A stretch of 37,556 nt of DNA from an uncultured bacterium (GTDB lineage: Bacteria > UBA8481), in the NCBI GenBank assembly GCA_964499705.1, contig CAZCME010000015.1, forward strand, positions 62,001-99,556, in the 5' to 3' direction. Below are positions 1-22,250 of the stretch, in pieces. The notes under the pieces are model-generated. The model worked only from the letters and a program-made list of their open reading frames with translations, searched no databases and was not told the origin of the DNA. A program made the position numbers and the translations under genes. How positions within the stretch are numbered: position 1 is the stretch's first letter; every line of letters starts with the position of its first letter.

Positions 1-3000
1 AAGCGGAATCGAGAGCTGCGGCCTTTCGGGCGAGAGTAACGACGCGGCCGTGATCTTCCGGCCCGCGGCCTGAATCGAGAGGACCACGTGCTTGATCGCG
101 GCCTCGGTCTGATAGGCCTCCGCCGCGAAATAGAGCGCGCGAGACTGCGCGTCGCGCAATTGCTGAGCGATCGCCTCCTTTTCCGCGGGAGCGGCATTCT
201 CGTGCGCCTCTTTCAAGCGGATGATTTCCCGCAGGTTTTCTTCGTACAACCTGTTCCGTGCGGCCCATTCGATGTTTTCGTTGTCGACTCGCGCGCCCGC
301 CAGTTCCTTCGCGCGCGCCTCGGCCTCGGCGCGCAGCTCCGCCTCGAAGCGCGATATCTTCCCGTTGGCTTCCTTGACCATTCCTTCGATCCGGTCGAGC
401 CGCGCGTTGAGATCCGCTCGCTGCGCTTCCGGTATGTTCTCCAGGATCGTTCGGCGATGCTCGCCCCATTGCCGGTCGTTCAGATATTTTCTTGCGGCCA
501 TGTATCCGAAATCGTCCTGGCGCGCGATATCGTCCTTGCCGCCGCGGAAGAGGTCGAAGACGGGATTCGTGTAGAAGTTGACGTCGAGAGTTCCTGCCGA
601 TTCCTTGCCGCCCAGCTCGAGCGCGCGGCCCCAGCGCGAGCCGAACCGCGCGTTGAAGAGGATGACCGCGAGCTCGGCCTTCGGCCCGTAGAACGAGAGG
701 TCGTAATCGCTCGTCAGGTTCGACGATCCGAACGCCTTCACGCTCGCCTCGCCGAACGATTCCTTCAGTTCCTTCACGATCTCGGCCGCGAGATCGTCGA
801 TGACCTCCTTCCGGAGATTGAAGACCGCGCGCATCTGCGCGTCCGAGACGTCGTGATGGAGAAACGCCTTCTTCAGGGCGTTCCACGATCCGCCGTACTG
901 TTCCATCAGACGCCGCACCGGCAAATATTCGTCCGTGAGGAATCGGTCGAATATCTCCATCGCGTCCCGCGTCTGAGAGACGCGGCCCTGTCCCTGTTCG
1001 CCGCCGATGTGGGAGGCGCGGAGCATGGCGACGGTGAGGAGATTTCCGATGAAGTCATCCTGCGTGATCTGGTTTCCCGAGAGCAGGCGGTTGAGGCCGG
1101 TCAGGAGCGCGGCTTCGCCGGTGGCGGTGATCGAGCCCGCGGCGGCACGGAAGAGCGCTTCCGCGCCCTCGGACGAGATGCGATCGCCGATCGCGCGGCG
1201 GATCCCTTCCTGCCCGAGCCGCATCGCGCCGCCGCCGAGGTTCAATGCGGATATGACGGCCGCGTTGTGGAGGAACTCCGATCCGAGCGCGCGCATCGAC
1301 CAGAGCCTGTCGTCGAGGATCATCTCGGGATTGATGGCGGTCCGCGCGCCGCGCGAGAGCGCCGTGAAGAGCGCCGCTTCGAGCGTTTTCTCCGCGCCCC
1401 ACGTCGCGATATACGCCGCGCCCGTTCGCGACACGAGATACCGTGCCGTGACCTTGATGCCCTCACGCTGGATGATCTCGCCCAGCGCCACGCGTCCGAA
1501 CGCGCCGGCGGCGAAGCGCCCGGAAATTCCGCCGGGAAGGACGACGGTCGCCGCGAGCTCGGCGGCGAACGCGGCGTTGACGTACTTGTCGATCGCCGCG
1601 AGCTTGCCTTCGTTCGCGAGCTCCGCCGCGGCTTTCGTGGGTTCCAAGGTGATCTCGCTCGGGATCCGATATCGCCCGTTCACGATGAAGCCGCGCTCCT
1701 CGAGGAATGCGCGATCGGCCTCCGCCAAGGCATCGACGGGCCGATACGCGGCGCGGATGAGCACCTGGTGGAGCTGAGCGATATCGTCGGATGCGGCGAG
1801 CAGTTCCTTCGCCGTCTCCTCGTGATACAGGCCGATCCGCGCGCCGCGCACCGGCCCGCGCCGATACCACGGCACGTCGAGATAATTGACGTAGGCTTCG
1901 TATTGCCCCGCGAGCGATGCCTCGCGAAGCTGGACGAGCGCAAGGAATCCCTTCTGGGGATCGTTTTCGCGCCGGGAAGCATCGAGGTCGTCGCGGAGCC
2001 ACTGGAGTCGATTCTCCGCGACGCGGCCCTGCTGCGCCTTCGCCATCTCGATCTCGGCCTTTCCGAGTCCCGACAATTCCGGGAACAGGAGAGGCGAAAT
2101 GTTTTCACCCGCCGCCTTCCACCGCGCGGCCTCCTGCGAAAGGATCGCGTTGTACCGGCCGCGCTTTTCGTCGATCGTCAGGTGCGGATTCTCCATCACG
2201 AGTTCGAGTCTCCGCCGCTCGTAGTAATGGATCTCGTCCTCCAGCATGTGGAGATCCCGCTGCCGGTCCTTGTCGTCGCCGGACAATTCTGTGAACTTCC
2301 GCCAGCCGCTCGCGCCCCGCCACCGTCCGCGAACGCCGTATGATACCTCCCGCGCGTTCTGGTTCGTGAAGCCGTTCAGGTCGCGATCGATGCGCCAGAG
2401 CTCCCACTCGAGCGCCGTCCGGTGCTCGTCGTTGTATCCGACCTTCTCCGTGATCATCTGCCGGCCCGAGCGCGCGATGTGATAATCCGCGGCGGCGTCG
2501 CGCTCCGCGCGGAGCGCGTTCAGGCGTCCGAGTTTCTCGTCGAGAGCGCGTCGCCGTTCCGGTTCCTCCATCGTCTTTCCGAGATTCGCGAATCCGGTTC
2601 GGATCTCTTCCTCGAGAGCGCGGATTCTGGTCGAGATATCCGCTTCAGCGGTGGCGAGATCCCCCAGTGATAGCCCGGCTTCGTAATGGATCCGCGCCAG
2701 CGCGCGATGATCGCGGAGGAAATCGATATACCGATCCTGCTCCGCGTTGAACTGTTTCTCGGTGACCGTGCCGGCCGCCTGACCTTCCCGCCGCTCGCGC
2801 AGATTCATGGCGGCGCGCGCGAGCAGATTCTCCTCGCCGTCCAGCGTCGTACGGACGCGGCGCCGCACCTCGTTACCGGTGGCGCGGAGGAAATCGTTCG
2901 CGGCGTTCTTCTGTGTTTCCGTCAGCGAGGGATCGTTCAGCCGGGCGCGCACAAGTTGGATGATCGTGTTGATCTCGCCGTATCCGCGGAGATATCCAAC

Positions 3001-6000
3001 GCGGTCGGCGGCGGCATCGAGTGCGTCCATCTGTTTCGCGAGCGCGCGGCCCGCGAGATCGAGGCGGCCCGCCTGCAGCGCTTCGCGGGCGAGAGCCGTG
3101 TATCCGCCGGGAGGAGGGGCGCTGCCTTCGAGCGCGCGTTTCCAGGCGCCGAACTGCGCCTCGCGGAGCGCGGCCGTGGCGAGGGCAGTGGTGAGCGCGA
3201 GACGCGATGCTTCGTCGAGATTATTCGCGGACTCCAGACGCCGCCTCGCGTCCGCGAGGAGTTCCGCGGCCCGCGCGTCGGAACCTTCGCCGGCAGGAGC
3301 GCGCCGCAGCGCCTCGACACGAGCGAGCGCGGTCTGCACGCCCAGCGCTTCGCGGGCGCGAGGGGAGAGGCCTTCGACGCGGTCGAGCACGGAAAGTATA
3401 TTTTCGAGCGAGCGATCGTCCAGCTGCTGGGAGAGGCGTTCCGCGAGGATCGCCACGGCGGCGGCACGGGCTTCCGCCGGCATCCTGTTCAGCGCGGCGA
3501 GCAGTTCCGAGGCCGGCAGGTTCGCGGCGTCGAAGGCGAGGCGATTTCCCAGAAGGAGCGGATCGTCGGGAGACATGCGGATCGCCTCGTCGAATACCCG
3601 CTTTGCCGCCTCGCGATTGTTCCCTTCGAGATGAAAGCGAGAAAGCTCGAGCGCGGCCGCGGCACGTTTCGCCGCATCCGGTTCCGCGCGCATCCATTCC
3701 TCGAGCACGCGCTTCCTCTCGTCCGCGAGCGCTTCCTTCCGTCCCAGCGTCGTCCGCTCCCCGTCGGTCACGGCGTCGTAAACCTGTTCCGCGGTACGGA
3801 GGAGCGATGCCAGCAGCCGCGCGCGCACGGCGCGCGAGGCGTCATCAGGACCCTGGAGATTGCGGAGCAATGCGAGCGCCTCGGTGAGTTTTCCGAGCCC
3901 GGTCAGTGCGCGGACTTCACGGACACCCGCGTCGAAGGCATGTTCCAGGAGCGCGTCGCGTTCCGGCCCGGATCCCGCCGCCAGGCGGCCGGCCGTGATG
4001 CGGCGAAGCGCGTACGCCTCGCGCAGACGTTCGAGGATAAGTCGCCGCTCGTCGTCCGTCGCGGTTTCCGGCAGTGATTCGAGCAGGCGCTCGAGAGCGA
4101 GCGACGATGCCGTGGCGGCGGAAAGTCCGCGCGCGCCGTCGCGCGATTCGACGGCTTTCGTCAGACGATCGTGGAGAATCTCGATGCGACGAAGTATGGG
4201 TTTCCAATCGCGCGAGTCGGAAGCAAGGGCTCGGAGAGACAGCAGGGAAGAGAGATGCGCGAGTTCGTCCTCCATCCGCCCCTCGCGCTCGGCGACTGAC
4301 GCCTTCTCGCCGAATTCGCGCCCGAGCTCGCCGATGATCGCATCGAGCCGCTCGCGCAGCAACTTTCGCGTGGGGCCGTTCACGCCCCAGGCGCGCGCGG
4401 CCTCCTTGTCGCCCAGGAGGAGCCCGAGTAGTTCGGCTTGCGAAAGGCGGATCGTCCGCCGGCCGTCCGCGTCCGGTCCGCGCGCCGATTCCTCGAAGAG
4501 CTCGCTCACGAAGCGCGCGGGTGTCACGGTGCCTTCGCCGCGGAGCCTGGCGAGAACGCGGACGAGCACGGCCGCGACACGATCCTCGCCGAACTTGTCC
4601 GCGAGCTGCATCACCAACTGCGGCAGAATCTCGCGCGATTGCGGCGACTGGCCGAGGAACTCGACGAGATTCGCGCGGATCCATTCGCGCAGACGCGCGC
4701 GCGGATCTATGAGCGTTGATGTGTCGGAGGGCGGAGCCTCGCCCGAAGCACGCGCGACCGCGGCTTCGCTCTGAGGAGGATGAGGAGCCGAATCCGTCGG
4801 TTCCGGCGCGGGCGGGGGAGAGGCGGGAGGTCGCTCGGGTGTCGTCCCGGGCCCCGAGGCGCGCGTGTCGCGCGCGGTTGTCGCCGGCGGAGGTGTCGTC
4901 GGTGCGGGTGATCTTTCTCCTGTCGGACCTGGCGGCGGCCGCGGTCTTTCGGGTGTCGGCGGCGGCGCCTCGGCCGGCTTTGTATCGCGCGATGTGGTCG
5001 GCGGTGGAACCGGCGTCTCGCGCGGACGTTCCGTTGTCGGCGCCGGCGTTGTCGCCGCGCGTTCGCTCGCGCGATCACCCGGCTTTACTTCGGCTTTTTC
5101 GGGAAGTCTCTCCGCGAGCCTGCGCGCCGCCTCCCACGCGATATCGCGATCGGCTGCCTCGCGCAGCGCGCGCTCATGGTCCCCTTCGAAAGCGCGCTCC
5201 GTCTTCTCTTCCTGCGTATTCCTGATGACACGATCGAGCGCGGCGATCTGCCTCGACAGCTCGTCGCTCTGCTTGCCCAGCCGCTCGCCGCGCGCATCGT
5301 CCTGCGCCACGCGCTCATCCCGTTCTCTCCGCGCGCGGGCGGCCTCGACATCCATCAGATCGCGCTGGAGCCGATTTCGCCGCTCCCGCAGATCGTCGAG
5401 ATTATTTTCGGATACGCGGCGTCCGGAGCGCGCGAGCTCGGCGAGATGTCTGTCGTTCTCCGCGATCCTGTCGATCCGATCCTGCTCCGGCATGGACACG
5501 ACCTCCGTGGTCGGCGCCGAGGGCCGTTCAACCGGCGCGGGTGTTCTCTCAGCGCGACGTTCCTCCTCCTCCTGTCGTCGCGCCGCGCCGGCCTCGCGCG
5601 CCCATCCGTCCCACATCCGCGCACGGCTCGCCTCGCGTTTCTTCTCGGCTTCGAGGTAGGCTTCCTCGCGCTTCTTTTCGTCCTCGAGCCGCGTGACGCG
5701 CTCGGTCTGCGCGGAATCCCTCTGCGGCACCGCGCGCAACTTCGCCAGCTCCACCTCGCGCTGCCGCGCTCTCTCTGCACGCCACGCCTCGAATCCTCCC
5801 TCGGCCGCAGCTTTCTCCCTCGCATCGGCGTCGGCCTGCCGCGCCGCATGATCCGCGCGGATGCGCTCCGCGTTCGCGCGATCCCGCGCCTCCTCGCGCT
5901 GAAGCGCTTCGGGGTCGAGCCTTTCGCGCGGTTCGAGCTTCACCGGAGGACGATCCAGTTCCGGCGGCCGGTTCCGTGCCGCTTCCCTCTCGACCTCCTC

Positions 6001-9000
6001 GGCGGCGCGCCGGGCTTCCTCCTTCAGCTTGTTCTCTTCCACCGTCTGCGCCGCGCGTCCGAATGCGCCCGCCCACTGCGGAGCCGCATCCACGCGATAG
6101 CGTCCTTCGTCGTCGACGTGTCCGCGGAAGCCCGAACGGGAAAGATTCTCCTGCGCTTCGCGACTCCTGCGCCGCGCCTCGATGATCCGCGCGTTGATCG
6201 ATCGCTCGTGCTCGGATATTTCGTCGGGGGTCAAGCCAAGATCGCCGCCGTATGTCCGCCCTTCGCCTGTCGGCTTCGAGAGCTGGTCGCGGACTTCCTC
6301 GAGCGAACGGATCCGGCCTTCCTCCTCGGAGACCGCCCGCGCGTCGCGCTCGAATCCGTTCACGTGGCGGCGCATCGCGTCCGGATCCACATTGCCGTCC
6401 GCGTCGATCATGTCGCCGTAGCCCTTGTTATAGTCGCGCACGGAATTGTGAGCGACATCGCCCATCGCGCTGTATCGCCCGATGCTGTTGTAGTCGATCA
6501 TCCGCCCGCGCACATCGTTCTCCATCGCGTCGGCTTCGCGCTGGAGCCGGCGGAAGTCCCGGTCCGCTTCGTTCGCCGCGAACTCGGCGTCCGCGAGCTT
6601 CCGTTCGAGCTCCTGGATTTCCGAGTATGGCCGGCCGTTGCGGCGGGCATCTTCGATCTTCTGCTTGAGGCCTCGCTCGCCTCCATTGCGTTGATCGTTA
6701 TCCGCCTCAGTCCGGGCCTTCTCGCGCGCGTTCATCGCCACGTTCATTTTCCTCTGGGTCTCCTGAAGGTCGGCGCTTCTCCGCTCGATCTCCGCGCGGT
6801 CCCGATCGAGCGCGCGGAGCGCGTCGGACCGCTCTAGCCCCTGCACACCGCCTTCGCCTACGCGATCGCGCGCATCCTGGATATCGGCCGAAGCTTTTCC
6901 TAGCCGGTCGCTGCGATTTTTCAGATCGTCCGATGAATAGGATCCGAATCCAGGATCGTCGCCGCCCGGCATCGTGCGGCTCGTGTTGCGGAAGAACGAT
7001 CCCCAGTCCTCGAACGATCCGCCCTGCTTCTCCACCAGCTTGCCGTATTCCGCCGCCGCGTCGCGTTCCAGACCGTTGACACGTGCCGTGAACGGTTTCC
7101 AACCCGTCCATGGTCCGGCATCTCCATCCGGAAGCCGCTTTCCTTCTTCTTCCCAGTTCCGCAGTCCACGCAGTTCGCGCTTTTCGTCGTCGGATATTTT
7201 TCCGGATTTTTCGAGCTTCTCCAGGCGTTCGTATCTTTCCACGACACGCTCCCGTTCCGTCCGCTGCGCTCGATCCATGGCGCGGTTGATATCCCGCAGT
7301 TCCTGAGCTTCATCCTCCGTCATCGGACGGTTATTGCGCCGCTTCTCGTCCAGCTCCTGATATCGCTCGTACACGCGATCCAATTCCTGCCGGGCCTCTT
7401 CCGCCTTCTGCCGCGCCGCCCGCGCGCGCCGTTCCTCGGGCGTCAATCCCACGCCGCGATCGAGCCGGTCCTCATACGACTCACGATCCCGATCGAAATC
7501 GCGGATCTCGCGCTCGAACTTCTGAGCGGCCTTGTCCGCCTTGACGCCATCCTTCGCGCGCTGAACGCGTCTCTGCTGGAGCTGGGCGCGCTGTTCACGG
7601 AGCGTCCGGCATTCCGGGGTCGCGCAGTTCCGGTCGCGCTCACGCATCTCCTGCTCCGCCTTCCGCAGATCCTTGTCGAGCTGGTCGTCGTCTCGCTCCG
7701 CCTTCTCGCGCCGGTCGCGTTCTTCGCGGATCTTGTCGCGATCGCGCTCGAGCCGCTCGCGTTCCTTCTGCAACCGCTCCTGTTCGCGCGCGTTCCGCTC
7801 GCGTTCAGGATTTCGCCGCCGCCGTTCCCGCTCCTCGTCCAGCTTCTTCTTCTTCGCGTCGATCTCCTCCTGGATTTTACGGAGCTCCTCATCGATCTTC
7901 GCATCCTCTTCATCCTTCTGCCGCTGGATCTCGTCCAGAATTTCCTGCGGCAACGGCGTCGTGTCCAGATCGTCCTCGTCCTCGTCGGGAGGTTTCGGGG
8001 AAAATCCGCAGATCTCGACCTGCCGGAGCCCGCGACCGTCGCCCGGATCCCAAAGGACAACGCGCGAGGCGCCGCCGCACTCGGCCGCGCCATCCGAACA
8101 TCCGCATCCCATGTGGCCGCAGCCGCACGACGGCGGCGGAGTCGCGTCGGGATCGCAGATCGTCGCAAGCGTTAGTCCGCGCCCGTCGCCCCGATCCCAC
8201 AACACCTGCTTCGTCCGCCCCTTGCACTGGTTCTCCTCGCTGCACCCGCATCCGAAATGCCCGCAATGGCATTTGAGGGGAGGCTTGCCGCCGCAGAGCT
8301 GGATCAGTCGATGCTGGCCGTCGACATCGACTCCGTAGGCCGATTGCGAGTTGCCCTTGCATTCGCCGTCGGTCGCGCAATTGCAATCGCGGAAACCGCA
8401 CTTGCACTTCGGAGGATCGGACGGCCCGCAGAGCTCGACGGAACGAAGGCCCATTCCATCGCCCTTGTCCCACAAGGCGCCGTGTTTCTGATTCCCGCAC
8501 GCCATGTCCGTCTTGCAGACGCATCCCATGCCGTTGCATCCGCATATACGATCAGGACAAGCTTGAACCACCGGAGCGATGAAAACGCCTTCGGTGATCT
8601 TGATCCACGCGTCCTTGACGACATTTGTGACGCAGAACTCGCGTCGCTCGATGAACTTGATTCCACCCGGCGGCGCGGTCGGAGCCGGCTGAGAAGTCGC
8701 CACGGCGACGGTGGGCAGTGACACCGTGGGAGAAGGAGTCGTGGTCTTGGGTGACGAGGATGCGGGAGCAGGAGCCGGTTCCGATGGTTTGGCCTCGTTG
8801 CAGCATTCGCCGAGCGGATACCCGTGGATGCAGACATTGCTCGGTGTCGAAGATGCCGGCGAAGAAGACGTGGACGCGGCAGCGGCGTCGCGAGCGCGCT
8901 TCTCCTCGAGGCTCGCCGCGGATGCGCCGGCCACCTGCGCCGCGATATCCGCCGCGGATGTCGCGGGTGGGAGCGCGGCCGGAGTTGTCGCCGTCGCGGG

Positions 9001-9363
9001 CGCGGACTGGGGCTGGTTCTTCGCTTTCAGGCGGGCAGCGTAATCATAGATGCTCGATGGCGTCGAAAATTTCGAAGGGGCGGCGGAGACCGCCGAGAGC
9101 GAGACGGTACCCGTAAGCGTGACATTAACGCAGGGGGCGCCCGTGATCTCCACGGCATGTTCGCCGGGCCCGAGCTTCTGGACCTGGTAGATTCCTTCTC
9201 CGGAAATCGTGAGCGTCAGCTCATGACCCGTTGAGTTGCGGATGGCCACGGCGCGGATGCAGTCAGTGGGAGACGCGGAGGAAACCTGCGCGGATGCGGA
9301 TCCCGCGTGGAAGAGCAGGATGGCCAGGAAGACCGGGAGAAAATTATGAACGCGGCTCGCCAT
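1..9363 (-). CDS. Giant secreted multidomain protein (>=3121 aa, 3' end beyond window) with Cys-rich repeats, coiled coil and a putative Pol-beta-superfamily nucleotidyltransferase domain
   Basis: Hand translation from ATG at 9363 (MASRVHNFLPVFLAILLFHAGSASA|QV, a Sec signal with AxA) found no stop down to position 1. GAGGG lies just upstream of the start. The long + strand ORFs over this region are its antisense shadows. It is probably absent from the track because it has no stop in the window. Confidence 0.9.
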   Translation of the reverse strand, partial: MASRVHNFLPVFLAILLFHAGSASAQVSSASPTDCIRAVAIRNSTGHELTLTISGEGIYQVQKLGPGEHAVEITGAPCVNVTLTGTVSLSAVSAAPSKFSTPSSIYDYAARLKAKNQPQSAPATATTPAALPPATSAADIAAQVAGASAASLEEKRARDAAAASTSSSPASSTPSNVCIHGYPLGECCNEAKPSEPAPAPASSSPKTTTPSPTVSLPTVAVATSQPAPTAPPGGIKFIERREFCVTNVVKDAWIKITEGVFIAPVVQACPDRICGCNGMGCVCKTDMACGNQKHGALWDKGDGMGLRSVELCGPSDPPKCKCGFRDCNCATDGECKGNSQSAYGVDVDGQHRLIQLCGGKPPLKCHCGHFGCGCSEENQCKGRTKQVLWDRGDGRGLTLATICDPDATPPPSCGCGHMGCGCSDGAAECGGASRVVLWDPGDGRGLRQVEICGFSPKPPDEDEDDLDTTPLPQEILDEIQRQKDEEDAKIDEELRKIQEEIDAKKKKLDEERERRRRNPERERNAREQERLQKERERLERDRDKIREERDRREKAERDDDQLDKDLRKAEQEMRERDRNCATPECRTLREQRAQLQQRRVQRAKDGVKADKAAQKFEREIRDFDRDRESYEDRLDRGVGLTPEERRARAARQKAEEARQELDRVYERYQELDEKRRNNRPMTEDEAQELRDINRAMDRAQRTERERVVERYERLEKLEKSGKISDDEKRELRGLRNWEEEGKRLPDGDAGPWTGWKPFTARVNGLERDAAAEYGKLVEKQGGSFEDWGSFFRNTSRTMPGGDDPGFGSYSSDDLKNRSDRLGKASADIQDARDRVGEGGVQGLERSDALRALDRDRAEIERRSADLQETQRKMNVAMNAREKARTEADNDQRNGGERGLKQKIEDARRNGRPYSEIQELERKLADAEFAANEADRDFRRLQREADAMENDVRGRMIDYNSIGRYSAMGDVAHNSVRDYNKGYGDMIDADGNVDPDAMRRHVNGFERDARAVSEEEGRIRSLEEVRDQLSKPTGEGRTYGGDLGLTPDEISEHERSINARIIEARRRSREAQENLSRSGFRGHVDDEGRYRVDAAPQWAGAFGRAAQTVEENKLKEEARRAAEEVEREAARNRPPELDRPPVKLEPRERLDPEALQREEARDRANAERIRADHAARQADADAREKAAAEGGFEAWRAERARQREVELAKLRAVPQRDSAQTERVTRLEDEKKREEAYLEAEKKREASRARMWDGWAREAGAARRQEEEERRAERTPAPVERPSAPTTEVVSMPEQDRIDRIAENDRHLAELARSGRRVSENNLDDLRERRNRLQRDLMDVEAARARRERDERVAQDDARGERLGKQSDELSRQIAALDRVIRNTQEEKTERAFEGDHERALREAADRDIAWEAARRLAERLPEKAEVKPGDRASERAATTPAPTTERPRETPVPPPTTSRDTKPAEAPPPTPERPRPPPGPTGERSPAPTTPPPATTARDTRASGPGTTPERPPASPPPAPEPTDSAPHPPQSEAAVARASGEAPPSDTSTLIDPRARLREWIRANLVEFLGQSPQSREILPQLVMQLADKFGEDRVAAVLVRVLARLRGEGTVTPARFVSELFEESARGPDADGRRTIRLSQAELLGLLLGDKEAARAWGVNGPTRKLLRERLDAIIGELGREFGEKASVAEREGRMEDELAHLSSLLSLRALASDSRDWKPILRRIEILHDRLTKAVESRDGARGLSAATASSLALERLLESLPETATDDERRLILERLREAYALRRITAGRLAAGSGPERDALLEHAFDAGVREVRALTGLGKLTEALALLRNLQGPDDASRAVRARLLASLLRTAEQVYDAVTDGERTTLGRKEALADERKRVLEEWMRAEPDAAKRAAAALELSRFHLEGNNREAAKRVFDEAIRMSPDDPLLLGNRLAFDAANLPASELLAALNRMPAEARAAAVAILAERLSQQLDDRSLENILSVLDRVEGLSPRAREALGVQTALARVEALRRAPAGEGSDARAAELLADARRRLESANNLDEASRLALTTALATAALREAQFGAWKRALEGSAPPPGGYTALAREALQAGRLDLAGRALAKQMDALDAAADRVGYLRGYGEINTIIQLVRARLNDPSLTETQKNAANDFLRATGNEVRRRVRTTLDGEENLLARAAMNLRERREGQAAGTVTEKQFNAEQDRYIDFLRDHRALARIHYEAGLSLGDLATAEADISTRIRALEEEIRTGFANLGKTMEEPERRRALDEKLGRLNALRAERDAAADYHIARSGRQMITEKVGYNDEHRTALEWELWRIDRDLNGFTNQNAREVSYGVRGRWRGASGWRKFTELSGDDKDRQRDLHMLEDEIHYYERRRLELVMENPHLTIDEKRGRYNAILSQEAARWKAAGENISPLLFPELSGLGKAEIEMAKAQQGRVAENRLQWLRDDLDASRRENDPQKGFLALVQLREASLAGQYEAYVNYLDVPWYRRGPVRGARIGLYHEETAKELLAASDDIAQLHQVLIRAAYRPVDALAEADRAFLEERGFIVNGRYRIPSEITLEPTKAAAELANEGKLAAIDKYVNAAFAAELAATVVLPGGISGRFAAGAFGRVALGEIIQREGIKVTARYLVSRTGAAYIATWGAEKTLEAALFTALSRGARTAINPEMILDDRLWSMRALGSEFLHNAAVISALNLGGGAMRLGQEGIRRAIGDRISSEGAEALFRAAAGSITATGEAALLTGLNRLLSGNQITQDDFIGNLLTVAMLRASHIGGEQGQGRVSQTRDAMEIFDRFLTDEYLPVRRLMEQYGGSWNALKKAFLHHDVSDAQMRAVFNLRKEVIDDLAAEIVKELKESFGEASVKAFGSSNLTSDYDLSFYGPKAELAVILFNARFGSRWGRALELGGKESAGTLDVNFYTNPVFDLFRGGKDDIARQDDFGYMAARKYLNDRQWGEHRRTILENIPEAQRADLNARLDRIEGMVKEANGKISRFEAELRAEAEARAKELAGARVDNENIEWAARNRLYEENLREIIRLKEAHENAAPAEKEAIAQQLRDAQSRALYFAAEAYQTEAAIKHVVLSIQAAGRKITAASLLSPERPQLSIPL
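8008..8544 (-). repeat. Four tandem ~45-aa cysteine-rich protein repeats inside the giant CDS
   Basis: Unit CxC-x4-CxC-x5/6-C-x8-WDxGDGxGL-x5-C with 24 Cys in 179 codons. The WDxGDG motif is replaced by VDVDG in copy 2. Confidence 0.85.
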
Positions 9364-9376
9364 GACCCTCGTTTGC

Positions 9377-9405
9377 AATATACGCCCGCGGAAAGAACGA
9401 GGCAA
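9377..9405 (-). promoter_or_regulatory. Putative sigma70-type promoter of the giant gene
   Basis: Minus strand TTGCCT (9405-9400), 17-nt spacer, TATATT (9382-9377), ending 13 nt before the ATG. Confidence 0.55.
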
Positions 9406-9479
9406 GTCGTGCGAGAAATCCATGAAGGAACATCTTTATCGCTTCCCACCGACGATTCCTGCGCCATAATTCCGTCATC

Positions 9480-10979
9480 ATGACGGACAAGATCGCCATC
9501 GGTCGCGCGGACGGCCGCGACATTTCCCTGCTGGCCTCCATGGGGAACAGGCATGGCCTCATCGCCGGAGCCACCGGCACCGGGAAGACGGTCACGCTCC
9601 AGACCATCGCCGAAGGTTTCTCCCGGATCGGCGTTCCTGTCTTCGCAGCGGATGTGAAGGGCGACCTGGCCGGACTCGCCGCCTCCGGTTCGTCTACCGA
9701 GAAACTTCAGGAACGGCTTCAGAAACTCCAGCTTGCCGATCACCCGTTTGAAGCGGCGACCGTGGAGATGTGGGATTTTCATGCGGCTTCAGGAATCCCG
9801 TTGCGCACGAGTGTCACGGAGATGGGGCCGCTCCTGCTCTCGCGGATTCTCTTCTGCACGGAGCCCCAGGCGAGCGTTCTCGAGATAGTCTTCCGGATCG
9901 CCGACGACAAGGGGCTGGCCCTGCTCGATCTGAAGGACCTGGGCGCGATGCTCGGCTGGATCGCGGACCACCGCGATGAGCTGACGCGCGAATACGGCGC
10001 GATCACGGCGCAGGTGCTGAACGTGATCCGGCGCAAGCTCGCGACTCTTTCCGATGCCGGCGGCGACCAATTCTTCGGGGAGCCGTCGCTGGCCCTGGCC
10101 GACCTCATGCGGTTGGATGCGTGCGGACGGGGGATGATCAACGTCCTCGATGCGTCACGCGTCCTGCAGGATCCCCGCATCTACACTTCCTTTCTCCTCT
10201 GGCTCCTCTCCGAACTCTTCGAGCAGCTCGACGAGGTGGGCGACCTCGATAAGCCGCGCCTCGTCTTCTTCTTCGATGAGGCGCATCTCCTTTTTGAGGA
10301 TGCTCCGAAGGGCCTCGAGGAGAGGATCCAGCGGGTGGTCCGGCTGATCCGCTCGAAGGGCGTCAGCATCTTTTTTGTGACGCAGAATCCCGCCGATCTG
10401 CCCGAGAAGGTTCTCTCGCAGCTGGGACATCGGATCCAGCATGGACTGCGGGCGTATACTCCGAAGGAACGAAAGGCGTTGCGGGCCGCCGCGCGGGGAT
10501 TCCGCGAGAATCCCGCGTTCGACGCGGAACAGGTGCTGCAGGAGCTCTCGACCGGCGAGGCGCTTGTTTCGGTGCTGGATGAAAATGGCGCGCCCGGAAT
10601 CGTGGAGCGCGTCCTTGTCGCGCCTCCGCGATCGAGGATCGGGCCGCTCCTCGCGGAAGAACGCGCCGCTCTTCTCGTGCGCTCGACCCTGCGCGCGAAA
10701 TACGAGCATCCGGTCGATCGCGAGTCGGCATACGAAATGTTGAGGGGTCGCGCGGATGTCGCGGAGCCGACGCGCGAAGAGGAGCAGAGCCTTCTGCATT
10801 TTCTCCAGGGCACGGACCGGTCATCGCGACCGGTCGCGAGCGAGCCGGTCCGGTCCGGAAAGCAACGGGACGATGTGCGCGACGCGTTCCTGAAATCCGC
10901 GGCGCGCTCGATCGGTTCCTCCGTCGGCCGCGGCATCGTGCGCGGAGTCCTGGGTTCCATCTTCGGGCGACGTCGCTGA
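9480..10979 (+). CDS. HerA-like P-loop ATPase, DUF853/YjgR family
   Basis: NRHGLIAGATGTGKT (Walker A), ADVKGDL, LVFFFDEAHLLF (Walker B), RLIRSKGV, TQNP, and a C-terminal RGVLGS tail. Confidence 0.92.
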   Translation: MTDKIAIGRADGRDISLLASMGNRHGLIAGATGTGKTVTLQTIAEGFSRIGVPVFAADVKGDLAGLAASGSSTEKLQERLQKLQLADHPFEAATVEMWDFHAASGIPLRTSVTEMGPLLLSRILFCTEPQASVLEIVFRIADDKGLALLDLKDLGAMLGWIADHRDELTREYGAITAQVLNVIRRKLATLSDAGGDQFFGEPSLALADLMRLDACGRGMINVLDASRVLQDPRIYTSFLLWLLSELFEQLDEVGDLDKPRLVFFFDEAHLLFEDAPKGLEERIQRVVRLIRSKGVSIFFVTQNPADLPEKVLSQLGHRIQHGLRAYTPKERKALRAAARGFRENPAFDAEQVLQELSTGEALVSVLDENGAPGIVERVLVAPPRSRIGPLLAEERAALLVRSTLRAKYEHPVDRESAYEMLRGRADVAEPTREEEQSLLHFLQGTDRSSRPVASEPVRSGKQRDDVRDAFLKSAARSIGSSVGRGIVRGVLGSIFGRRR

Positions 10980-10984
10980 CCGCG

Positions 10985-11680
10985 ATGGCAGTGAAAGCGA
11001 CGGTCGTTCTCCCCACGTACTGCGAAGCGGAGAATCTTCGGACTCTTCTGCCCGTCCTCCTCGAAGCCGCTCCCGTGGAGGTGATCGTCGTCGACGATAA
11101 CTCGCCGGATAAGACGGCGGATGTGGCGCAGGCGATCGCGGAGAAGACGAAGCGCGTTCACGTGCTGCGGCGCGCCGGCAAGCTGGGGCTCGGTTCCGCC
11201 TACAAGACGGGTATGAGAGCCGCGCTGGAGACGGGCGCGGAGATCGTGATCACGATGGATGCGGACTGGTCTCACGATCCGGCGCGTCTGCCGGCTCTCC
11301 TCGAAGCCGCGTCCGATCGGGCGCTCGCCATCGGGTCGCGGTACGTGCCCGGCGGAGGGCTCGGCCCCTGGCCGCTCTCCCGTCGCGTTCTCTCCAGGAC
11401 GGCGCAGTTCTTCGCCCGGACCATGCTCGGTTTCGCCGCGCACGACCTGACTTCCGGTTACCGCGCCTATCATCAGCATGTTCTCATCGCCGTGCCTCCG
11501 GAAAGCATCCAGTCCGATGGTTACTCCTTCCTGATCGAGATGGCCTACCGAGTGCGCCGCGCGGGATTCGAGATTCGCGAGGTGCCCATCATCTTCACGG
11601 ACCGCCGGATGGGCCAGTCGAAGATTTCGCGACGCGAAATATTTCGCGCGATGCGAACGCTCTTCCGCCTGAGATTCTGA
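10985..11680 (+). CDS. Polyprenol-phosphate mannosyltransferase (Dpm1/Ppm1-like GT2)
   Basis: PTYCEAEN, VVDDNSPDKT, KLGLGSAY, MDADWSH, IGSRYV, DLTSGYR, EVPIIFTDRRMGQSK. Confidence 0.88.
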   Translation: MAVKATVVLPTYCEAENLRTLLPVLLEAAPVEVIVVDDNSPDKTADVAQAIAEKTKRVHVLRRAGKLGLGSAYKTGMRAALETGAEIVITMDADWSHDPARLPALLEAASDRALAIGSRYVPGGGLGPWPLSRRVLSRTAQFFARTMLGFAAHDLTSGYRAYHQHVLIAVPPESIQSDGYSFLIEMAYRVRRAGFEIREVPIIFTDRRMGQSKISRREIFRAMRTLFRLRF

Positions 11681-11685
11681 TCCGC

Positions 11686-13149
11686 TTATTTCGTCCAGAT
11701 CTGGTAGAAACCCGCGGCGCCCGGAATCGGAGCCATTCCGGCCCTCTGGAGCCGTTCGGGATCGAGCGCGTCCGCGGAATCGCTCCGCAGAGGCTCGTAC
11801 ACGACCGTCTTCAGCCGTGACTCCTCGATCGCGCGGTACACATCCTCTTCCCATCGCCCCTTCTGCCGCGCCATCCGCGCGCTGAACGTATCCGCGGACG
11901 CGGATCGCAGCGTCGCCAGCACGCCGTCGCGGTCGGCGGTCTCCTTGATCCAGAGGTAGACGCCGTAGAATTCCGGATGACGGATGTAGCCGCTGCTGTT
12001 GGTCTCGAATATGAGGACGGACGGCGCGTACATCACGGTCCCGGCCCGGCCCAGGTCCTCGATCGCGCGCGCCGCCCTCATGATCTCGCTCCGGTCGACC
12101 CCTTCGGTGACGAAGGGCATCCTGCCGCCGGCGCCCAGGAAGGCGAGAAGCAGCAGGGAGACGGAGCAGGCCGTGCGGGCGAAGAGAACGCGCGGGTTTC
12201 CCTTCGCGATCTTTCGAGCCTCGTCCCAACCCGCGGCGGCCAGGAGCGTCATGGGGACGAGCGGGTCGATGGCGTTATGCGACCAGTAGGTCGGCCCCAT
12301 GAGGACAAGCGCGGATGTAAAGAGCGACATCAACGCGACGATCTTCCAGCGCAGATCGGAACATTGTGACAGGAAGCCGGCAATCGCCGGAATCAGGATC
12401 GGATTCGTCGCGATGAAGAAACTGTTGAACCTGTGCGCCAGAGGCAACGGCCCTTTCATAGCCTGGAAGAGGAACGCCTGGATGAAAAACTCCCGGCCGA
12501 AAACGATTCCCAGCAGCGCGATGATCGCGAGCATTGCGGACATCGCGAGCGCGAAATACCGCAACGCCGCGCGCCGATCGGTGAGCGCGATGCCCGCGGT
12601 GGTTCCGAGGACCGCGAGCCCGAACGTCGCCTTGATGAAGAAACCGATCGCGGAAAGAAATACAAGCGCGGGAATTTTTCCGCCGGCGGGGCGCCGGGTA
12701 TCGAGCATGAGGAGAAGCATGGCGGCGATGATGGCCGCCGACAGCACTTCCGGTTCGAACACGTGATGGGCCAGCGTCGCCGGCGCCCACGAGAACAGCA
12801 GCGCGGCGACCGCTCCGACGAAAGGCCCCGACAGGATGTTCCCGATCCGCCACAGCATCCAGGCCGTCATCCAGTTGAAGGAGGCCGTCAGGCATTGCGT
12901 CGAGAAGAGACTGGGCGTGATGAGGAAATAATAGAAGCCGAGGATGAACTGCGCCCCGGGAAGTTGAGTCAGGACGGAGTCGCGGTAGGGAAGCTCCCCA
13001 CGCACCACGCCCGCGGCGCATTGCAGGTAATAGGGATCGTCCAGCGTGACGGGTTCGATGCTGTTCCTGATGAGAAGCGGAGCAACGACCGCGAGGACAA
13101 GAAGAATTGTTCCGGTTCGCCGGGAGAAGATTTGAGCTTCAGGCCACAG
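11686..13149 (-). CDS. Multi-TM GT-C-fold glycosyltransferase (ArnT/PMT/GT87-like); start codon uncertain
   Basis: Many TM helices. The open frame extends upstream of the track's GTG (13008) through a TM helix and the loop motif LDDPYY..A..V.RGELPYRD...QLPG typical of GT-C enzymes. There is no in-frame ATG/GTG/TTG upstream of it, so CTG 13149 is used provisionally. Confidence 0.65.
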   Translation of the reverse strand: MWPEAQIFSRRTGTILLVLAVVAPLLIRNSIEPVTLDDPYYLQCAAGVVRGELPYRDSVLTQLPGAQFILGFYYFLITPSLFSTQCLTASFNWMTAWMLWRIGNILSGPFVGAVAALLFSWAPATLAHHVFEPEVLSAAIIAAMLLLMLDTRRPAGGKIPALVFLSAIGFFIKATFGLAVLGTTAGIALTDRRAALRYFALAMSAMLAIIALLGIVFGREFFIQAFLFQAMKGPLPLAHRFNSFFIATNPILIPAIAGFLSQCSDLRWKIVALMSLFTSALVLMGPTYWSHNAIDPLVPMTLLAAAGWDEARKIAKGNPRVLFARTACSVSLLLLAFLGAGGRMPFVTEGVDRSEIMRAARAIEDLGRAGTVMYAPSVLIFETNSSGYIRHPEFYGVYLWIKETADRDGVLATLRSASADTFSARMARQKGRWEEDVYRAIEESRLKTVVYEPLRSDSADALDPERLQRAGMAPIPGAAGFYQIWTK

Positions 13150-13184: not shown

Positions 13185-14999
13185 CTAAAGATTCAGGAGC
13201 GAGGGACTGTCAACGTCGGGCTTGGTCTTGTCATCCCGATACCAGTTCGCATGCATCCCCTGGTTCCGCAGCGAGTCGAGAATCCGCCGCAGCGCCGGTT
13301 CGACGAGGTCGCTCGCATCCTCGACGCACCAGGAGTAAATCTGGCAGTTTAATTCTCCGTCCGTCATGAAGAGGCATCCATAACGAAGGGGAATTCCTCC
13401 CACGTTCCCATCCAGCCAGATCTCGCGCAGGTCCGCCGACCCGATCCGACCCTCCCTGCGGCTTATGGGCTCGATGTCTTCCAGCGTCATGAAGCCGTAC
13501 TCCTCGAGCTCGTCGAGCGTCATGCCGCTGGTGTCCGACAGGATCATCAGGAATCCCCACGACCTGTTGAAAGCAAACATGTCGCCGGCCTGGACGCCGA
13601 ATTTGAGGGGATCCACCTGTTTCCAGGCCATCGAATCGAACGCGAGCGAGAGCGTCGTTCCCGGAATGGCATGCTCGAACGGATTTTCAGTCGGAATCGC
13701 ATCGATGTCGTCCGTCCGCCATCCGATCCTTTCTGTAAATCGGGTCAACTCCGATTCGACGATTCCCGCCTGGGATGAACTGCCCCATACGGCGAACTCA
13801 TATACTAGTTCTCCTCTCGCGACGGCCACGGCTCGCCACTCCACAACGGAGCGCCCGAAGCGTATTTTGAAACGAAAGCGCATGCCGGTGTCCGAACCGA
13901 CGACGCATTCTTCCAGCTCCGATGCGTCGAGCACCTGGGCCCTCTGCCCGATTTCTAGCTTGCGCATCTCGAAGTAACGTTCGAGCCCGGCCGCACCGTA
14001 CGGCTGCACCATCATGCCCGCGCCCAGGTCTCCGGAGCTGTTCACCAGCACAAAGTCGAGATTCTCGGTCCACCTTTCCTCGCTGCGTTTCCAATCGTCG
14101 GGGATCTCGATGGTGTAACCGAATCGCGGACTCCGAAAGCGTTCCCGCGCGGAACGGATCGTTTCGTGCGCGTGAAAGAGAGCGGGGTCCGCAATGCCGT
14201 TCAGGACGACGTCGGAGATGGTCACGGTGCTGAAAGGGATCCGGTTGGCTCCGGTGGAATCCGCCAGTGCCATCGTGAATCCCGTCGGAATCGGGAATCC
14301 CTCGGAATCGGCGAAGTGATTCGTGATGACGATGGTGACGGAGACGGGTATGTCGCTTCCTGCCACGTTGACCATGGTCACCTCCTTCAACCGGTTCAGT
14401 CCCAGGGAATTCTCCCAGGTGAACCGGCAGGACATGCTGTCACCGTCCTTGCGCATGCGCGCGACCGCCATCGTGGCCGGATCGATCCAGATGTGGATGG
14501 ACTCTCCCGCCGTGAAGTGAGCGAGCCCGTCCTCCACGCCCAGGAAGACCGGCGAATCGTCGGTGTCGCCGGCGTCGGCCTTTGAGCCCTTGTCGCGGCG
14601 GACATTGCCGAAAGTTCGCGGCGAAAAGAATATGTTGAGCGAGAACGTGCTCATCTTGTTCATGGTTTCGACGATCGAGAATCGCTGCTCGTCCGTCAGA
14701 TCCTCGCCCGCGATCCAGTAGATCATCGAATCCGGAGCCATCCAGCTGAACATGACGCCGTCCGTCGGGGATGATGTCGCGCCGAGCTCCTTCTGCAGAT
14801 GCTTCTCGATCATGGGGCCGGAAAGGCGGCATGAGAAGCTCCTGATTCCGGCCGACTCATAATCGAACATGCGCGCCATGACGAGTTCGATATCCGGAGG
14901 GACCTGGATTTCGGCCGCGCTCGCGGGTAGGAGCGCGATGCACATCAAGGCGAAGACCAACGCGAGCCGAGATCCGGGCGCGGGAGCGATCATGCTCAT
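13185..14999 (-). CDS. Secreted/periplasmic protein with a LolA-like beta N-terminal region and two PsbP/DcrB-like C-terminal domains (putative)
   Basis: A signal peptide follows Met 14999/14993 (SRLALVFALMCIALLPASAA|E). IHIWIDPATMAVARM and TISDVVLNGIADPALF resemble LolA-type sorting proteins. FRSPRFGYTIEIPDDW... resembles PsbP/DcrB. The track's longer start overlaps the cyclase gene. Confidence 0.6.
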   Translation of the reverse strand: MSMIAPAPGSRLALVFALMCIALLPASAAEIQVPPDIELVMARMFDYESAGIRSFSCRLSGPMIEKHLQKELGATSSPTDGVMFSWMAPDSMIYWIAGEDLTDEQRFSIVETMNKMSTFSLNIFFSPRTFGNVRRDKGSKADAGDTDDSPVFLGVEDGLAHFTAGESIHIWIDPATMAVARMRKDGDSMSCRFTWENSLGLNRLKEVTMVNVAGSDIPVSVTIVITNHFADSEGFPIPTGFTMALADSTGANRIPFSTVTISDVVLNGIADPALFHAHETIRSARERFRSPRFGYTIEIPDDWKRSEERWTENLDFVLVNSSGDLGAGMMVQPYGAAGLERYFEMRKLEIGQRAQVLDASELEECVVGSDTGMRFRFKIRFGRSVVEWRAVAVARGELVYEFAVWGSSSQAGIVESELTRFTERIGWRTDDIDAIPTENPFEHAIPGTTLSLAFDSMAWKQVDPLKFGVQAGDMFAFNRSWGFLMILSDTSGMTLDELEEYGFMTLEDIEPISRREGRIGSADLREIWLDGNVGGIPLRYGCLFMTDGELNCQIYSWCVEDASDLVEPALRRILDSLRNQGMHANWYRDDKTKPDVDSPSLLNL

Positions 15000-15016
15000 A
15001 TCGAAGTCGGCGGCAT
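14996..15016 (-). CDS. Putative leaderless 6-codon uORF (MPPTSI*) coupled by ATGA overlap to the downstream gene
   Basis: Minus strand TACAAT-gcgccc-ATG CCG CCG ACT TCG ATA TGA. The TGA overlaps ATG 14999. Confidence 0.35.
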   Translation of the reverse strand: MPPTSI

Positions 15017-22170: not shown

Positions 22171-22250
22171 TCCATATTTTTTGATGGGGAAGTTCTGGCG
22201 CGCCCAAGCAAAGCTGGATTTTTCGCCCGTCTCTGGCTAACGTGGAGCCC

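Follow-up and report, generated by a model that had tools for sequence, protein, structure and literature searches.

A giant signal-peptide protein with a nucleotidyltransferase-like end domain, a probable effector or toxin of an undescribed family

The MARTX toxins, the large clostridial toxins and the Mcf-type toxins are very large polypeptides with a membrane-active region and one or more enzyme domains near the end. eCIS-associated toxins (Geller et al. [quoted passage not shown] 2012 (PMC3482391), DUF4157/eCIS_core toxins go under the name of PVC-metallopeptidase toxins. The latter work describes polymorphic toxins with a signal peptide (the 'T2SS' class), whose immunity gene is invariably adjacent, and considers distant organisms the probable targets of toxins that have no immunity gene. 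For an injected domain of nucleotidyltransferase fold, the Legionella effector DrrA/SidM is a precedent (PMC12409994). Here we describe a giant gene in a 37,556-nucleotide stretch of DNA from an uncultured bacterium (the window), whose product is probably an effector or toxin exported by the Sec pathway and belonging to a family not described before.

A first-pass annotation had proposed that a stop-free frame on the minus strand, absent from the ORF track, encodes this protein, and machine translation revealed no in-frame stop. When open ends were allowed in the ORF listing, a stop-free frame of 3141 aa was obtained at 1..9423, open at the left end of the window; translation from 9363 gives 3121 codons with zero stops. 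The frame had been omitted because open-ended ORFs are not listed by default. A database protein of 3237 aa (P0002) starts at the same Met as ATG 9363; over 3121 aligned positions there are two differences and no indel. Thus, only the last 116 residues are missing from the window. The giant gene is real. Long spurious ORFs are common at 62-70% GC, and 45 ORFs of at least 100 aa overlap positions 1-12000; that the frame is a chance product of GC-rich DNA, and not a gene, is nevertheless next to impossible. The 3121 stop-free codons speak against it, and it is refuted by the near-identical full-length P0002, by relatives at 31-59% identity in several phyla, and by the invariant active-site-like columns and confident AF2 model of the end domain described below.

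ATG 9363 (MASRVH...) is the likely start. The promoter and ribosome-binding site announced in the annotation were both located, as consensus matches only (Table 1). Promoter-like sites, likewise counted as consensus matches only, number 2 in 9250-9650 against 0.1 expected in shuffles, and the -10 box is only 6 nt from GAGGG. A reading from ATG 9423 would contain the promoter match, which favours the start at 9363.

Table 1. Features of the giant gene and its product. Positions are those of the window; residues are those of the 3237-residue protein.
Feature	Position	Strand	Basis
CDS, residues 1-3121 of 3237	1..9363	minus	stop-free frame and near-identical P0002
Sigma-70-like promoter match, TTGCCT-17-TATATT	9377..9405	minus	9/12 consensus matches
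GAGGG, Shine-Dalgarno-like, 3 nt upstream of ATG 9363	9366..9370	minus	consensus match only
Signal peptide, residues 1-25, probable cleavage ASA/Q	9289..9363	minus	hydropathy and by eye
Small N-terminal domain, residues 26-110, Cys35 and Cys78	9034..9288	minus	sequence; no family match
Ala/Ser/Thr/Pro-rich linker, residues ~111-260	8584..9033	minus	block composition
Four ~46-residue Cys-rich repeats, residues 262-452	8008..8580	minus	motif CxCxxxxCxC .. LWDxGDGxGL .. C
Highly charged helical stalk, residues ~470-1420	5104..7956	minus	composition
Conserved CxxxxC (CATPEC) in charged stalk	7609-7626	minus	comparison with other giants
Pro/Thr-rich linker, residues ~1421-1550	4714..5103	minus	block composition
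All-alpha solenoid-like region, residues ~1551-2590	1594..4713	minus	AF2 for 2070-2590; homologues
Ala/Gly-rich amphipathic helices, residues ~2591-2790	994..1593	minus	hydropathy, AF2 pLDDT 40-60
End domain, nucleotidyltransferase-like, first 331 of ~450 residues (2791-3237)	1..993	minus	relatives, AF2
GSSNLTSDYD, putative catalytic G-S...D-x-D, residues 2879-2888	700..729	minus	conservation, strand-loop-strand
D-V-N, putative third carboxylate on next strand, residues 2927-2929	577..585	minus	conservation

The domain order and coordinates proposed for the N-terminal part were recovered: the Cys pair within 35-78, the linker, the four repeats, the charged region and the Pro block (24 Pro and 18 Ser/Thr in residues 1401-1500) were all located. 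The Sec signal peptide claimed there agrees with residues 1-25 by hydropathy and by eye. These residues have a basic start, a FLPVFLAILLF core and ASA followed by Q, and they hold the sole 19-residue window of the whole protein with a Kyte-Doolittle (KD) mean of at least 1.5. Since 33 of the 34 cysteines also lie within the first 585 residues, the protein is very probably exported by the Sec pathway. The repeated CxCxxxxCxC motifs span residues 274-452 (8008-8544). The Cys-rich repeats were seen only in the giant protein itself (P0001, P0002) among 159 proteins compared. None of 894 candidates from a homologue search is related to them, which is weak evidence as only proteins of 350-2000 aa were covered, and the ESM Atlas gave no usable match.

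The charged region was found where a coiled coil of about 950 aa had been placed, but it resembles a classical coiled coil less than it does a charged stalk (a single helix or a polyampholyte) that contains a conserved sub-domain: D/E/K/R account for 47% of residues 480-1420 and L/I/V/M/F for only 15%. The sub-domain, at residues ~800-1100, is conserved among relatives; residues 475-1030 match P0003 at 37%, and 7 of the 8 other giants listed have a Cys pair at the 5-residue distance seen in the stalk motif.

For the region called TPR-like in the annotation, the helices were reproduced and the TPR assignment was not. AF2 modelled residues 2070-2570 mostly at pLDDT >85, as helices with a small beta insert; Pfam returned only a sub-threshold TPR match (15.4 bits against a cut-off of 23.5), and the mid module had no PDB match at E<=0.001 in Foldseek. 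Conservation of the solenoid-like region among giant relatives begins at residue ~2070. Similarly, the 'hydrophobic helices' proposed at ~1010-1580 are present as helices, but these are Ala/Gly-rich and amphipathic. Hydropathy of the mature protein peaks at residues 2595-2613 with a KD of 1.48, the usual transmembrane threshold being 1.5-1.6; thus, residues 2591-2790 are not clear transmembrane segments. Conserved segments of the region carry conserved Glu/Arg. The 'translocation segment' of the annotation had been an inference, and it was not substantiated, there being neither clear transmembrane helices nor a fold match.

Three relatives (P0016, P0068, P0097) have 460-1000 upstream residues in common and then unrelated tails, and in all three the switch falls at one junction, residues ~2783-2799, where the amphipathic helices end. 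Swapped C-termini are present in these three, while most relatives keep the same end domain. In these searches, which started from the C-terminal part and so favour conserved ends, it is the best-conserved part of the protein and not a hypervariable tip. The solenoid and amphipathic module was found in 24 of 67 related loci and in none of loci L027-L067. Some relatives contain two nucleotidyltransferase-like domains and a kinase-like domain (kinase-like tails were judged by eye).

The end region has 224 relatives (cluster representatives) at E<=1e-3. G2879, S2885, D2886, D2888, D2927, N2929 and Y2931 are each conserved in 80/80 sequences of the alignment, and G2879-S2880, D2886-x-D2888 and D2927 each in 75-80 of 80. 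The helical lobe of the domain carries invariant Lys/Arg/Tyr/Glu, with E3082 at 83/83 and K3156 and R3160 at 82/83. In the AF2 model (pLDDT 92.8, pTM 0.91), G-S is flanked by two strands, and a third carries D-x-N (strands 88-92, 101-106 and 142-146). The hG[GS] and [DE]h[DE]h motifs and a third carboxylate on adjacent strands are all present. The spacing from G-S to D-x-D is 5 residues; in Pol-beta-type nucleotidyltransferases it is usually 9-13. A G-X11-D-X-D motif is absent, as the residue 12 before D2886 is Ser, with Gly there in some relatives. The invariant GS..SDxD..DxN pattern, as placed in the model, fits a Pol-beta-type nucleotidyltransferase core. The claim of an NTP-dependent enzymatic end domain thus gains an NTP-enzyme signature, nucleotidyl transfer itself being only predicted.

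Structure comparison of the end domain gave 0 matches at E<=0.001 (Foldseek against PDB and BFVD). PDB matches to recognisable enzymes were all local, over 83-84 columns: Tut1 (5wu5_C, prob 0.51), GLD-2 (6lbj_A, 0.60) and MNT (7ae2_B, 0.30). These local nucleotidyltransferase matches have E of 0.75-1.1 and an rmsd of ~7 A. The ~300-residue helical lobe is without a structural neighbour (TM ~0.1 for whole-length matches). The top rows of the Foldseek output were long-helix noise (OprM/TolC, tape-measure proteins, CAND1). In hhalign, the ungapped register places GSSNLTSDYDLSF on the active-site stretch of GlnE at a probability of only 1.7%; against E. coli Cca the probability was 0.6%, with an irrelevant region aligned. 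The best ESM Atlas score was 0.89, and an NTP_transf_2 cluster stood 18th at 0.87, below the useful range. No profile library among Pfam, NCBIfam, PADLOC and PHROGs identifies the domain as a nucleotidyltransferase. PADLOC and PHROGs gave only scattered matches at E >=0.003 for the end domain and nine relatives, as did PHROGs for the mid module and the N-terminal part. Across all 42 members of group A1, Pfam showed no family common to more than one member. PDB sequence searches with the whole protein and the A1 profile returned nothing below E 0.2, and tblastn found no match to the end domain in plasmids or phages.

The relatives are giant signal-peptide proteins from Hydrogenedentota, Sneathiella, Kiloniella, Dongia, Burkholderiales and Rhodobacteraceae. 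The large ones (n=15) are unnamed or 'hypothetical', apart from one generic JGI label. Identity is 31-52% over large parts of the protein, with the best conservation in residues ~2070-3230 (52% to P0003). Common to the relatives are the last ~1150 residues: the solenoid, the Ala/Gly-rich amphipathic helices and the ~450-residue end domain. Of 25 large relatives complete at the 5' end, 20 begin with a hydrophobic segment; the five without it include the eCIS_core-type L032 and the size-matched L036 and L046. Searched with the whole protein, Pfam and NCBIfam gave no match at E<=1; searched with seven segments, they gave nothing beyond sub-threshold noise. A full-length match to a known structural or housekeeping family was sought in Pfam, NCBIfam and PDB sequence searches, and none emerged. 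The protein probably belongs to an undescribed family. A limited literature search showed no description of the end domain or the family.

Gene context was compared with that of 67 related loci, and no synteny with the window was detected, only unrelated housekeeping matches. Pyruvate kinase, taken as a taxonomic marker, has its best non-self match at 65% identity, and named matches reach no more than 52%. A gene for a CsgG-family outer-membrane channel lipoprotein flanks the giant gene in 11 of the 67; relatives of CsgG export surface fibre subunits. In the window, tblastn found no CsgG homologue (best match E 0.011 over 52 residues). Other relatives come with VWA genes or domains. The immunity-like neighbour to be looked for according to the annotation failed to appear in the related loci: at 22 of these, none of the downstream ORFs recurs across genera, and only Kiloniella species have theirs in common. 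The closest relative (L013) has no recognisable partner, as its small downstream ORFs have no Pfam match.

The end domain also occurs on other carriers. eCIS_core is N-terminal of it in 3 of 58 short relatives (P0071, P0075, P0124) and in a Nostoc protein of 1943 aa encoded at L032 (E 1e-32), a locus that also contains Phage_T4_gp19, a second eCIS_core protein and Pvc16_N. An actinomycete protein of >4482 aa (L045) combines two Scabin-like (ADP-ribosyltransferase) stretches with the end domain. These fusions are distant relatives of the end domain (22-30% identity), not of the type of the window protein, which is without eCIS_core (Pfam); no eCIS component was found among 20 window ORFs scanned. 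The occurrence of the end domain as eCIS cargo and beside ADP-ribosyltransferase toxin domains makes an effector or toxin domain most likely.

To account for these observations, we consider a giant modular effector, the NTP-using end domain of which acts inside a foreign cell and is carried by the solenoid and amphipathic module; the chances for this are about even. The Sec pathway would export the 3237-aa modular protein. The lineage-specific small domain, the Cys-rich repeats and the ~950-residue charged stalk may expose the protein or bind a target, and the conserved solenoid and amphipathic module could serve as a carrier or membrane-crossing device. Inside the foreign cell the end domain would use an NTP to attach a nucleotide to a target, AMPylation being one example. 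That the protein leaves the periplasm and enters another cell, that it transfers nucleotides and that it is toxic are all steps that we infer; the giant protein showed no domain known for delivery across the outer membrane or into target cells. A further-reaching proposal, a new class of self-delivering giant effectors working without a contractile machine or a known translocon, is unlikely. After Sec export the protein would, in some lineages, cross the outer membrane by a CsgG-like channel dedicated to it. The long charged stalk would hold a binding head, specific to the lineage, out from the cell, and the module would carry interchangeable enzyme cargo (the new nucleotidyltransferase-like fold, the kinase-like domain, other domains) across a foreign, probably eukaryotic, membrane.

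A giant structural protein of the envelope or surface (adhesin, fibril, periplasmic or surface scaffold) that does not enter other cells is rather unlikely but keeps a real chance. The end domain would then work on the producer's own envelope or only bind something. The signal peptide, Cys-rich repeats, long charged stalk and P/T linkers are in keeping with large surface proteins. The CsgG-family genes beside some relatives, the VWA of others and the lack of a conserved immunity gene also speak for this reading, and a conserved end domain would be expected of a housekeeping role. The invariant D-x-D..D and Lys/Arg residues, however, suggest an enzyme of NTP type, whose substrate one would not expect to meet outside the cytoplasm. 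The presence of the end domain on unrelated carriers, signal-peptide-less eCIS cargo and the ADP-ribosyltransferase protein, also tells against an envelope role, since such movement is typical of effector modules and not of envelope enzymes.

The demand for NTPs would be satisfied if the protein were a membrane-anchored sensor, with a huge periplasmic part, membrane helices at 2591-2790 and a cytoplasmic nucleotidyltransferase/cyclase-like output to which relatives would add a kinase-like one. The enzyme would sit where NTPs are, the enzyme and kinase-like tails (by eye) resemble signalling outputs, and the peak hydropathy of the mature protein falls in the proposed helices. Yet past the signal peptide every window stays below the usual threshold and conserved Glu/Arg lie in the conserved segments, while the eCIS_core fusions, the Scabin-like partners and the unrelated tail domains behind the same module do not suit a sensor; we regard it as improbable. 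The probability is similarly low for a classical interbacterial polymorphic toxin, contact-dependent or secreted, whose end domain kills related bacteria and whose small immunity gene lies just beyond the left end of the window. The order of signal peptide, long stalk and C-terminal enzyme and the tail swaps at a fixed junction agree with it; the downstream regions of the related loci (Kiloniella species excepted) and of L013, and the absence of RHS, FilH, TPS repeats and a pretoxin domain, do not. Of the polymorphic-toxin architecture seen in the annotation, the export signal, stalk and putative C-terminal enzyme stand, and the RHS/FilH/pretoxin modules and conserved immunity gene are wanting. 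The classical polymorphic-toxin label is only partly supported.

If the reading as a giant effector is true, the repertoire of bacterial effectors and toxins gains a new, well-defined enzyme domain, known from ~224 cluster representatives; it has a confident model without any structural neighbour, and its active-site-like pattern is invariant. Cyanobacterial eCIS cargo would be tied to giant Sec-exported proteins of marine alphaproteobacteria and poorly sampled phyla. The carrier module with its fixed tail junction is a testable candidate for a new delivery route, and the cultured carriers Sneathiella, Kiloniella and Dongia make experiments possible.

Compared with the MARTX, clostridial and Mcf toxins, the window protein is alike in size and in a putative membrane-active region and enzyme domain near the end; it differs in having no RTX repeats, T1SS signal, cysteine protease or glucosyltransferase, and a Sec signal peptide instead. 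As the annotation had stated, RHS, filamentous haemagglutinin, RTX, LXG and autotransporter motifs gave no significant match in Pfam and NCBIfam. Pfam likewise showed no TPS/haemagglutinin repeats, beta-barrel translocator, RTX nonapeptides, RHS/YD or LXG/WXG100 N-terminus in the window protein, and HExxH is absent in the 8 giants checked. Only the Streptomyces relative L041 has a weak WXG100_2 match, of 19.5 bits where the cut-off is 27. Among enzymes, MNT antitoxins and terminal uridylyl and poly(A) polymerases provide the sole recognisable local fold matches, with three carboxylates in the expected order, but the end domain has no Pfam NTP_transf_2 match and a shorter G-S to D-x-D loop than these Pol-beta-type enzymes. 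GlnE and the AMPylation domain of DrrA/SidM have G..SDxD on a strand-loop-strand as in the end domain, whereas their strict G-X11-D-X-D (PMC12409994) is not found in the window protein and its helical lobe has no known counterpart; both are absent from the listed Foldseek matches and the PDB sequence matches. From the polymorphic toxins the window protein differs in lacking RHS, FilH, PT-TG, VENN and pretoxin modules (Pfam, NCBIfam) and a conserved adjacent immunity gene, in keeping its end domain in most relatives, and in that this domain is not a Pfam toxin family. It resembles the 'T2SS' class of Zhang et al. 2012 (PMC3482391) in the order of export signal, long spacer and C-terminal enzyme, in an enzyme domain found across different export routes and, for some relatives, in tail swaps at a fixed junction. 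Compared with the eCIS toxins, it is far larger, a Sec signal peptide takes the place of eCIS_core, and it contains a solenoid and amphipathic module absent from the eCIS forms. With the eCIS-associated toxins of Geller et al. 2021 (PMC8213781) it shares long linkers before the end domain and the frequent lack of an immunity gene, and its end domain is homologous to the C-terminal domain of the eCIS_core proteins P0071, P0075 and P0124 and of the Nostoc protein of L032.

A single stop-free frame of 3141 codons, open at its left end, was found on the minus strand at window 1-9423 when open ends were allowed in the ORF listing. Such a frame had been proposed in the first-pass annotation and is borne out by a translation without stop; the ORF track omits it because open-ended frames are not shown by default. 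In P0002, a public protein of 3237 aa, the start is ATG 9363 (MASRVH...), and the window translation differs from it at 2 of 3121 positions with 0 indels. Thus, the window carries residues 1-3121 of a 3237-residue protein. The promoter and ribosome binding site claimed earlier are matched by consensus-level sites, and hydrophobic residues 1-25 resemble the claimed Sec signal peptide (see table). Promoter-like sites in 9250-9650 numbered 2 against 0.1 expected, and residues 1-25 hold the sole 19-residue stretch in the protein with mean hydropathy >=1.5. Among large ORFs of relatives with a complete 5' end, an N-terminal hydrophobic signal-like segment was seen in 20/25 and was absent from five (L020, L032, L036, L038, L046).

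No part of the giant protein was named by any library searched (profile libraries, PDB sequences), and its gene is a member of a family that has no name. With residues 2500-3121 as query, 15 large proteins (1766-4163 aa) were retrieved, unnamed or 'hypothetical' except for one generic JGI label; exhaustive phmmer with residues 2600-3121 gave 224 cluster representatives of 165-3940 aa at E<=1e-3. The closest relative, from a Hydrogenedentota MAG, shows 59% identity. BLAST mapping places the common part at residues ~2070-3230 (52% identity to the relative P0003), with weaker matches at residues 475-1030 and 1534-1953. A one-genome-per-species scan yielded 67 loci, with none of them in the window's source genome, from Sneathiella, Kiloniella, Dongia, Burkholderiales, Rhodobacteraceae, Hydrogenedentota, Verrucomicrobiota, Planctomycetota, cyanobacteria, Myxococcota and actinomycetes. 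The mid module (residues 2070-2790) occurs in 24 of them, all within L001-L026. Actinomycete relatives are larger still.

Conservation of the end domain (residues ~2791-3237) was read from A2, an alignment of 84 sequences. G2879, S2885, D2886, D2888, D2927, N2929 and Y2931 are each conserved in 80/80, S2880 in 75/80, E3082 in 83/83, and K3156, Y3157 and R3160 each in 82/83. From A2, AlphaFold2 built a model of very high confidence (pLDDT 92.8, pTM 0.91), a three-stranded sheet against a large all-helical lobe. G-S sits within the loop joining strands 1 and 2, while strand 2 carries D-x-D and strand 3 carries D-x-N. As modelled, the domain is without structural neighbour: Foldseek against PDB and BFVD gave 0 structures at E<=0.001, with whole-length TM-scores of ~0.1. 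Recognisable enzyme-type rows were solely local, over 83-84 columns, and came from Pol-beta-type nucleotidyltransferases: Tut1 (5wu5_C, prob 0.51, 24% identity), GLD-2 (6lbj_A, prob 0.60) and MNT (7ae2_B, prob 0.30). Hhalign of A1, a 42-sequence alignment, placed GSSNLTSDYDLSF ungapped on the active-site stretch of E. coli GlnE, at a probability of just 1.7%. The end domain probably combines a catalytic core of nucleotidyltransferase type with a new scaffold; membership in the Pol-beta-type superfamily is likely, not established. The C-terminal enzyme proposed earlier is supported by an invariant active-site-like pattern, its class assigned at motif level.

The domain order and coordinates proposed earlier also held, and three labels were corrected. 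Charged residues make up 47% of the 'coiled coil' (residues 480-1420) and L/I/V/M/F just 15%; charged helical stalk is the better name for it, and it includes a conserved sub-domain. The 'TPR-like' label was based on sub-threshold matches, and residues 2591-2790, labelled 'hydrophobic helices', are rich in Ala and Gly (KD max 1.48) with no clear membrane spans. Modelling of the mid module gave a helical solenoid that carries a small beta insert. This model is confident up to residue ~2570 and of low definition over the amphipathic helices (overall pLDDT 74.4); it had no neighbour in PDB. The Cys-rich repeats were seen in no other of 159 proteins compared, nor by Atlas search or one homologue search. 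A Cys pair spaced like that of the stalk was present in 7/8 other giant relatives listed (P0003, P0005, P0007, P0009, P0012, P0013, P0016; not P0014), within weakly conserved sequence.

Features of the window and of related loci
Feature	Location	Strand	Basis or remark
Promoter-like TTGCCT-17-TATATT	window 9405-9377	-	consensus match only
GAGGG, immediately upstream of ATG 9363	window 9370-9366	-	consensus match only
Sec-like signal peptide, ending ASA/Q	residues 1-25	-	hydropathy
Four Cys-rich repeats, each ~46 residues, CxCxxxxCxC .. LWDxGDGxGL .. C	window 8008-8580	-	
CxxxxC pair CATPEC, beginning of charged stalk	window 7609-7626	-	
HerA-like ATPase gene	window 9480-10979		divergent to giant gene
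Candidate ORF, 440 aa	window 11686-13008	-	
Candidate ORF, 739 aa	window 13185-15404	-	overlaps called start of next entry by about 365 bases
Adenylate cyclase ORF	window 15039-16469		
Apparent operon: ECF sigma factor, zf-HC2 anti-sigma protein, 898-aa VIT + VWA protein	window 22242-26735	+	
CsgG-family genes	L002:620-1636, L007:863-1948, L010:651-1742		PF03783 + weak FlgT_C
3' genes (AAR2-like, YbjN-domain or both)	L032:11387-12223, L046:11387-12208; L032:12640-13776, L043:11553-12677		
Actinomycete relatives	L045:2-13447; L041:3884-18883		>4482 aa; >5710 aa

Housekeeping or regulatory functions account for the other window genes (GT2, adenylate cyclase, fumarase, pyruvate kinase, an ECF sigma/anti-sigma pair, a VIT-VWA protein, pyruvate carboxylase, MlaD and an ABC protein); no RNA genes were found in the window. 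The pyruvate kinase reaches 65% identity at most, to a protein without a name, and no more than 52% to named proteins. Some giant relatives (L021-L024, L039, P0097) likewise come with VWA genes or domains. The two candidate ORFs on the giant gene's strand had no Pfam match and lacked relatives among the 67 loci.

In line with the earlier reading, which recognised no RHS, RTX, LXG or autotransporter motifs, profile search found no such domains, nor any TPS domain. HExxH was absent from the 8 giants checked, and no known delivery module was found in the giant protein. A CsgG-family lipoprotein gene lies directly 5' of the giant gene in 11/67 loci (those tabulated and L001, L003, L006, L011, L012, L014, L016, L019), in Sneathiella, Kiloniella, Dongia, a Halopseudomonas MAG and L006 (Pfam E-values 5e-32 to 8e-30 in three ORFs scanned); in 8 of these 11 a conserved ~200-aa ORF without Pfam match precedes it. 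This placement suggests a dedicated outer-membrane channel there, and the lipoprotein may serve for export in those lineages. The window holds no CsgG-family gene, and eCIS, T6SS, TPS and CsgG genes were not found among 20 window ORFs scanned. The N-terminus of L041 is WXG100-like, weakly and below threshold, which hints at type VII export.

The first-pass annotation read the protein as a giant effector or polymorphic toxin. The signal peptide and a tail swap in three relatives conform to a polymorphic toxin, but the conserved tip and the lack of a conserved downstream partner do not. The same end domain is kept by most relatives and is the best-conserved part of the giant protein; in 22 related loci (the window ends inside the gene) no downstream ORF was common to several genera, and L013, the closest locus, had no recognisable partner gene. 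According to Zhang et al. (2012, PMC3482391), the immunity gene is invariably adjacent in polymorphic toxin systems, and toxins without one probably target distant organisms. A classical immunity-linked toxin is improbable. At cyanobacterial loci, an AAR2-like protein (PF20981 + PF05282), a YbjN-domain protein, or both are encoded 3' of the end-domain gene; either may be a partner with an immunity or chaperone role. The AAR2 family is known for its part in spliceosome assembly in eukaryotes. For the giant protein, a role in the envelope or at the surface is a less likely reading, and a membrane sensor is as improbable as the classical toxin. The best-supported reading, held at roughly even confidence, is an effector or toxin, because of domain context in distant relatives and the motif-level enzyme assignment.

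Regarding this effector reading, the end domain moves between different carriers. Homologues with swapped C-termini, envisaged earlier, were found: 460-1000 residues of the upstream module are retained in P0016, P0068 and P0097, which bear unrelated tails from a shared point at residues ~2783-2799. Thus, the upstream module behaves as a carrier of exchangeable enzyme cargo. In Sneathiella-type giants the end domain is duplicated and followed by a tail of ~280 residues that is kinase-like by eye (G-rich loop, D-x-K-P-x-N, D-P-G), its motifs in canonical order (LGKGATSYVY .. GYAWLDNKPDNY .. VVIDPGG); it had no profile confirmation or Pfam match. This tail (P0004-P0006, P0017-P0019, P0025; loci L002, L007-L012, L019) comes after the end domain in giants of Sneathiella and Kiloniella, and in P0097 (residues ~2150-2420) it stands in place of that domain. 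In Saccharopolyspora (L045), one protein of >4482 aa joins the end domain to two Scabin-like ADP-ribosyltransferase stretches. An eCIS_core (DUF4157) domain lies N-terminal of the end domain in 3/58 short relatives, and likewise in a 1943-aa Nostoc protein (L032, E 1e-32) whose locus also codes for a T4 gp19-type tail tube, a second eCIS_core protein and Pvc16_N. According to Geller et al. (2021, PMC8213781), eCIS-associated toxins consist of an N-terminal marker, a long linker and a C-terminal toxin, and the layout of the relatives' eCIS_core proteins matches theirs exactly.
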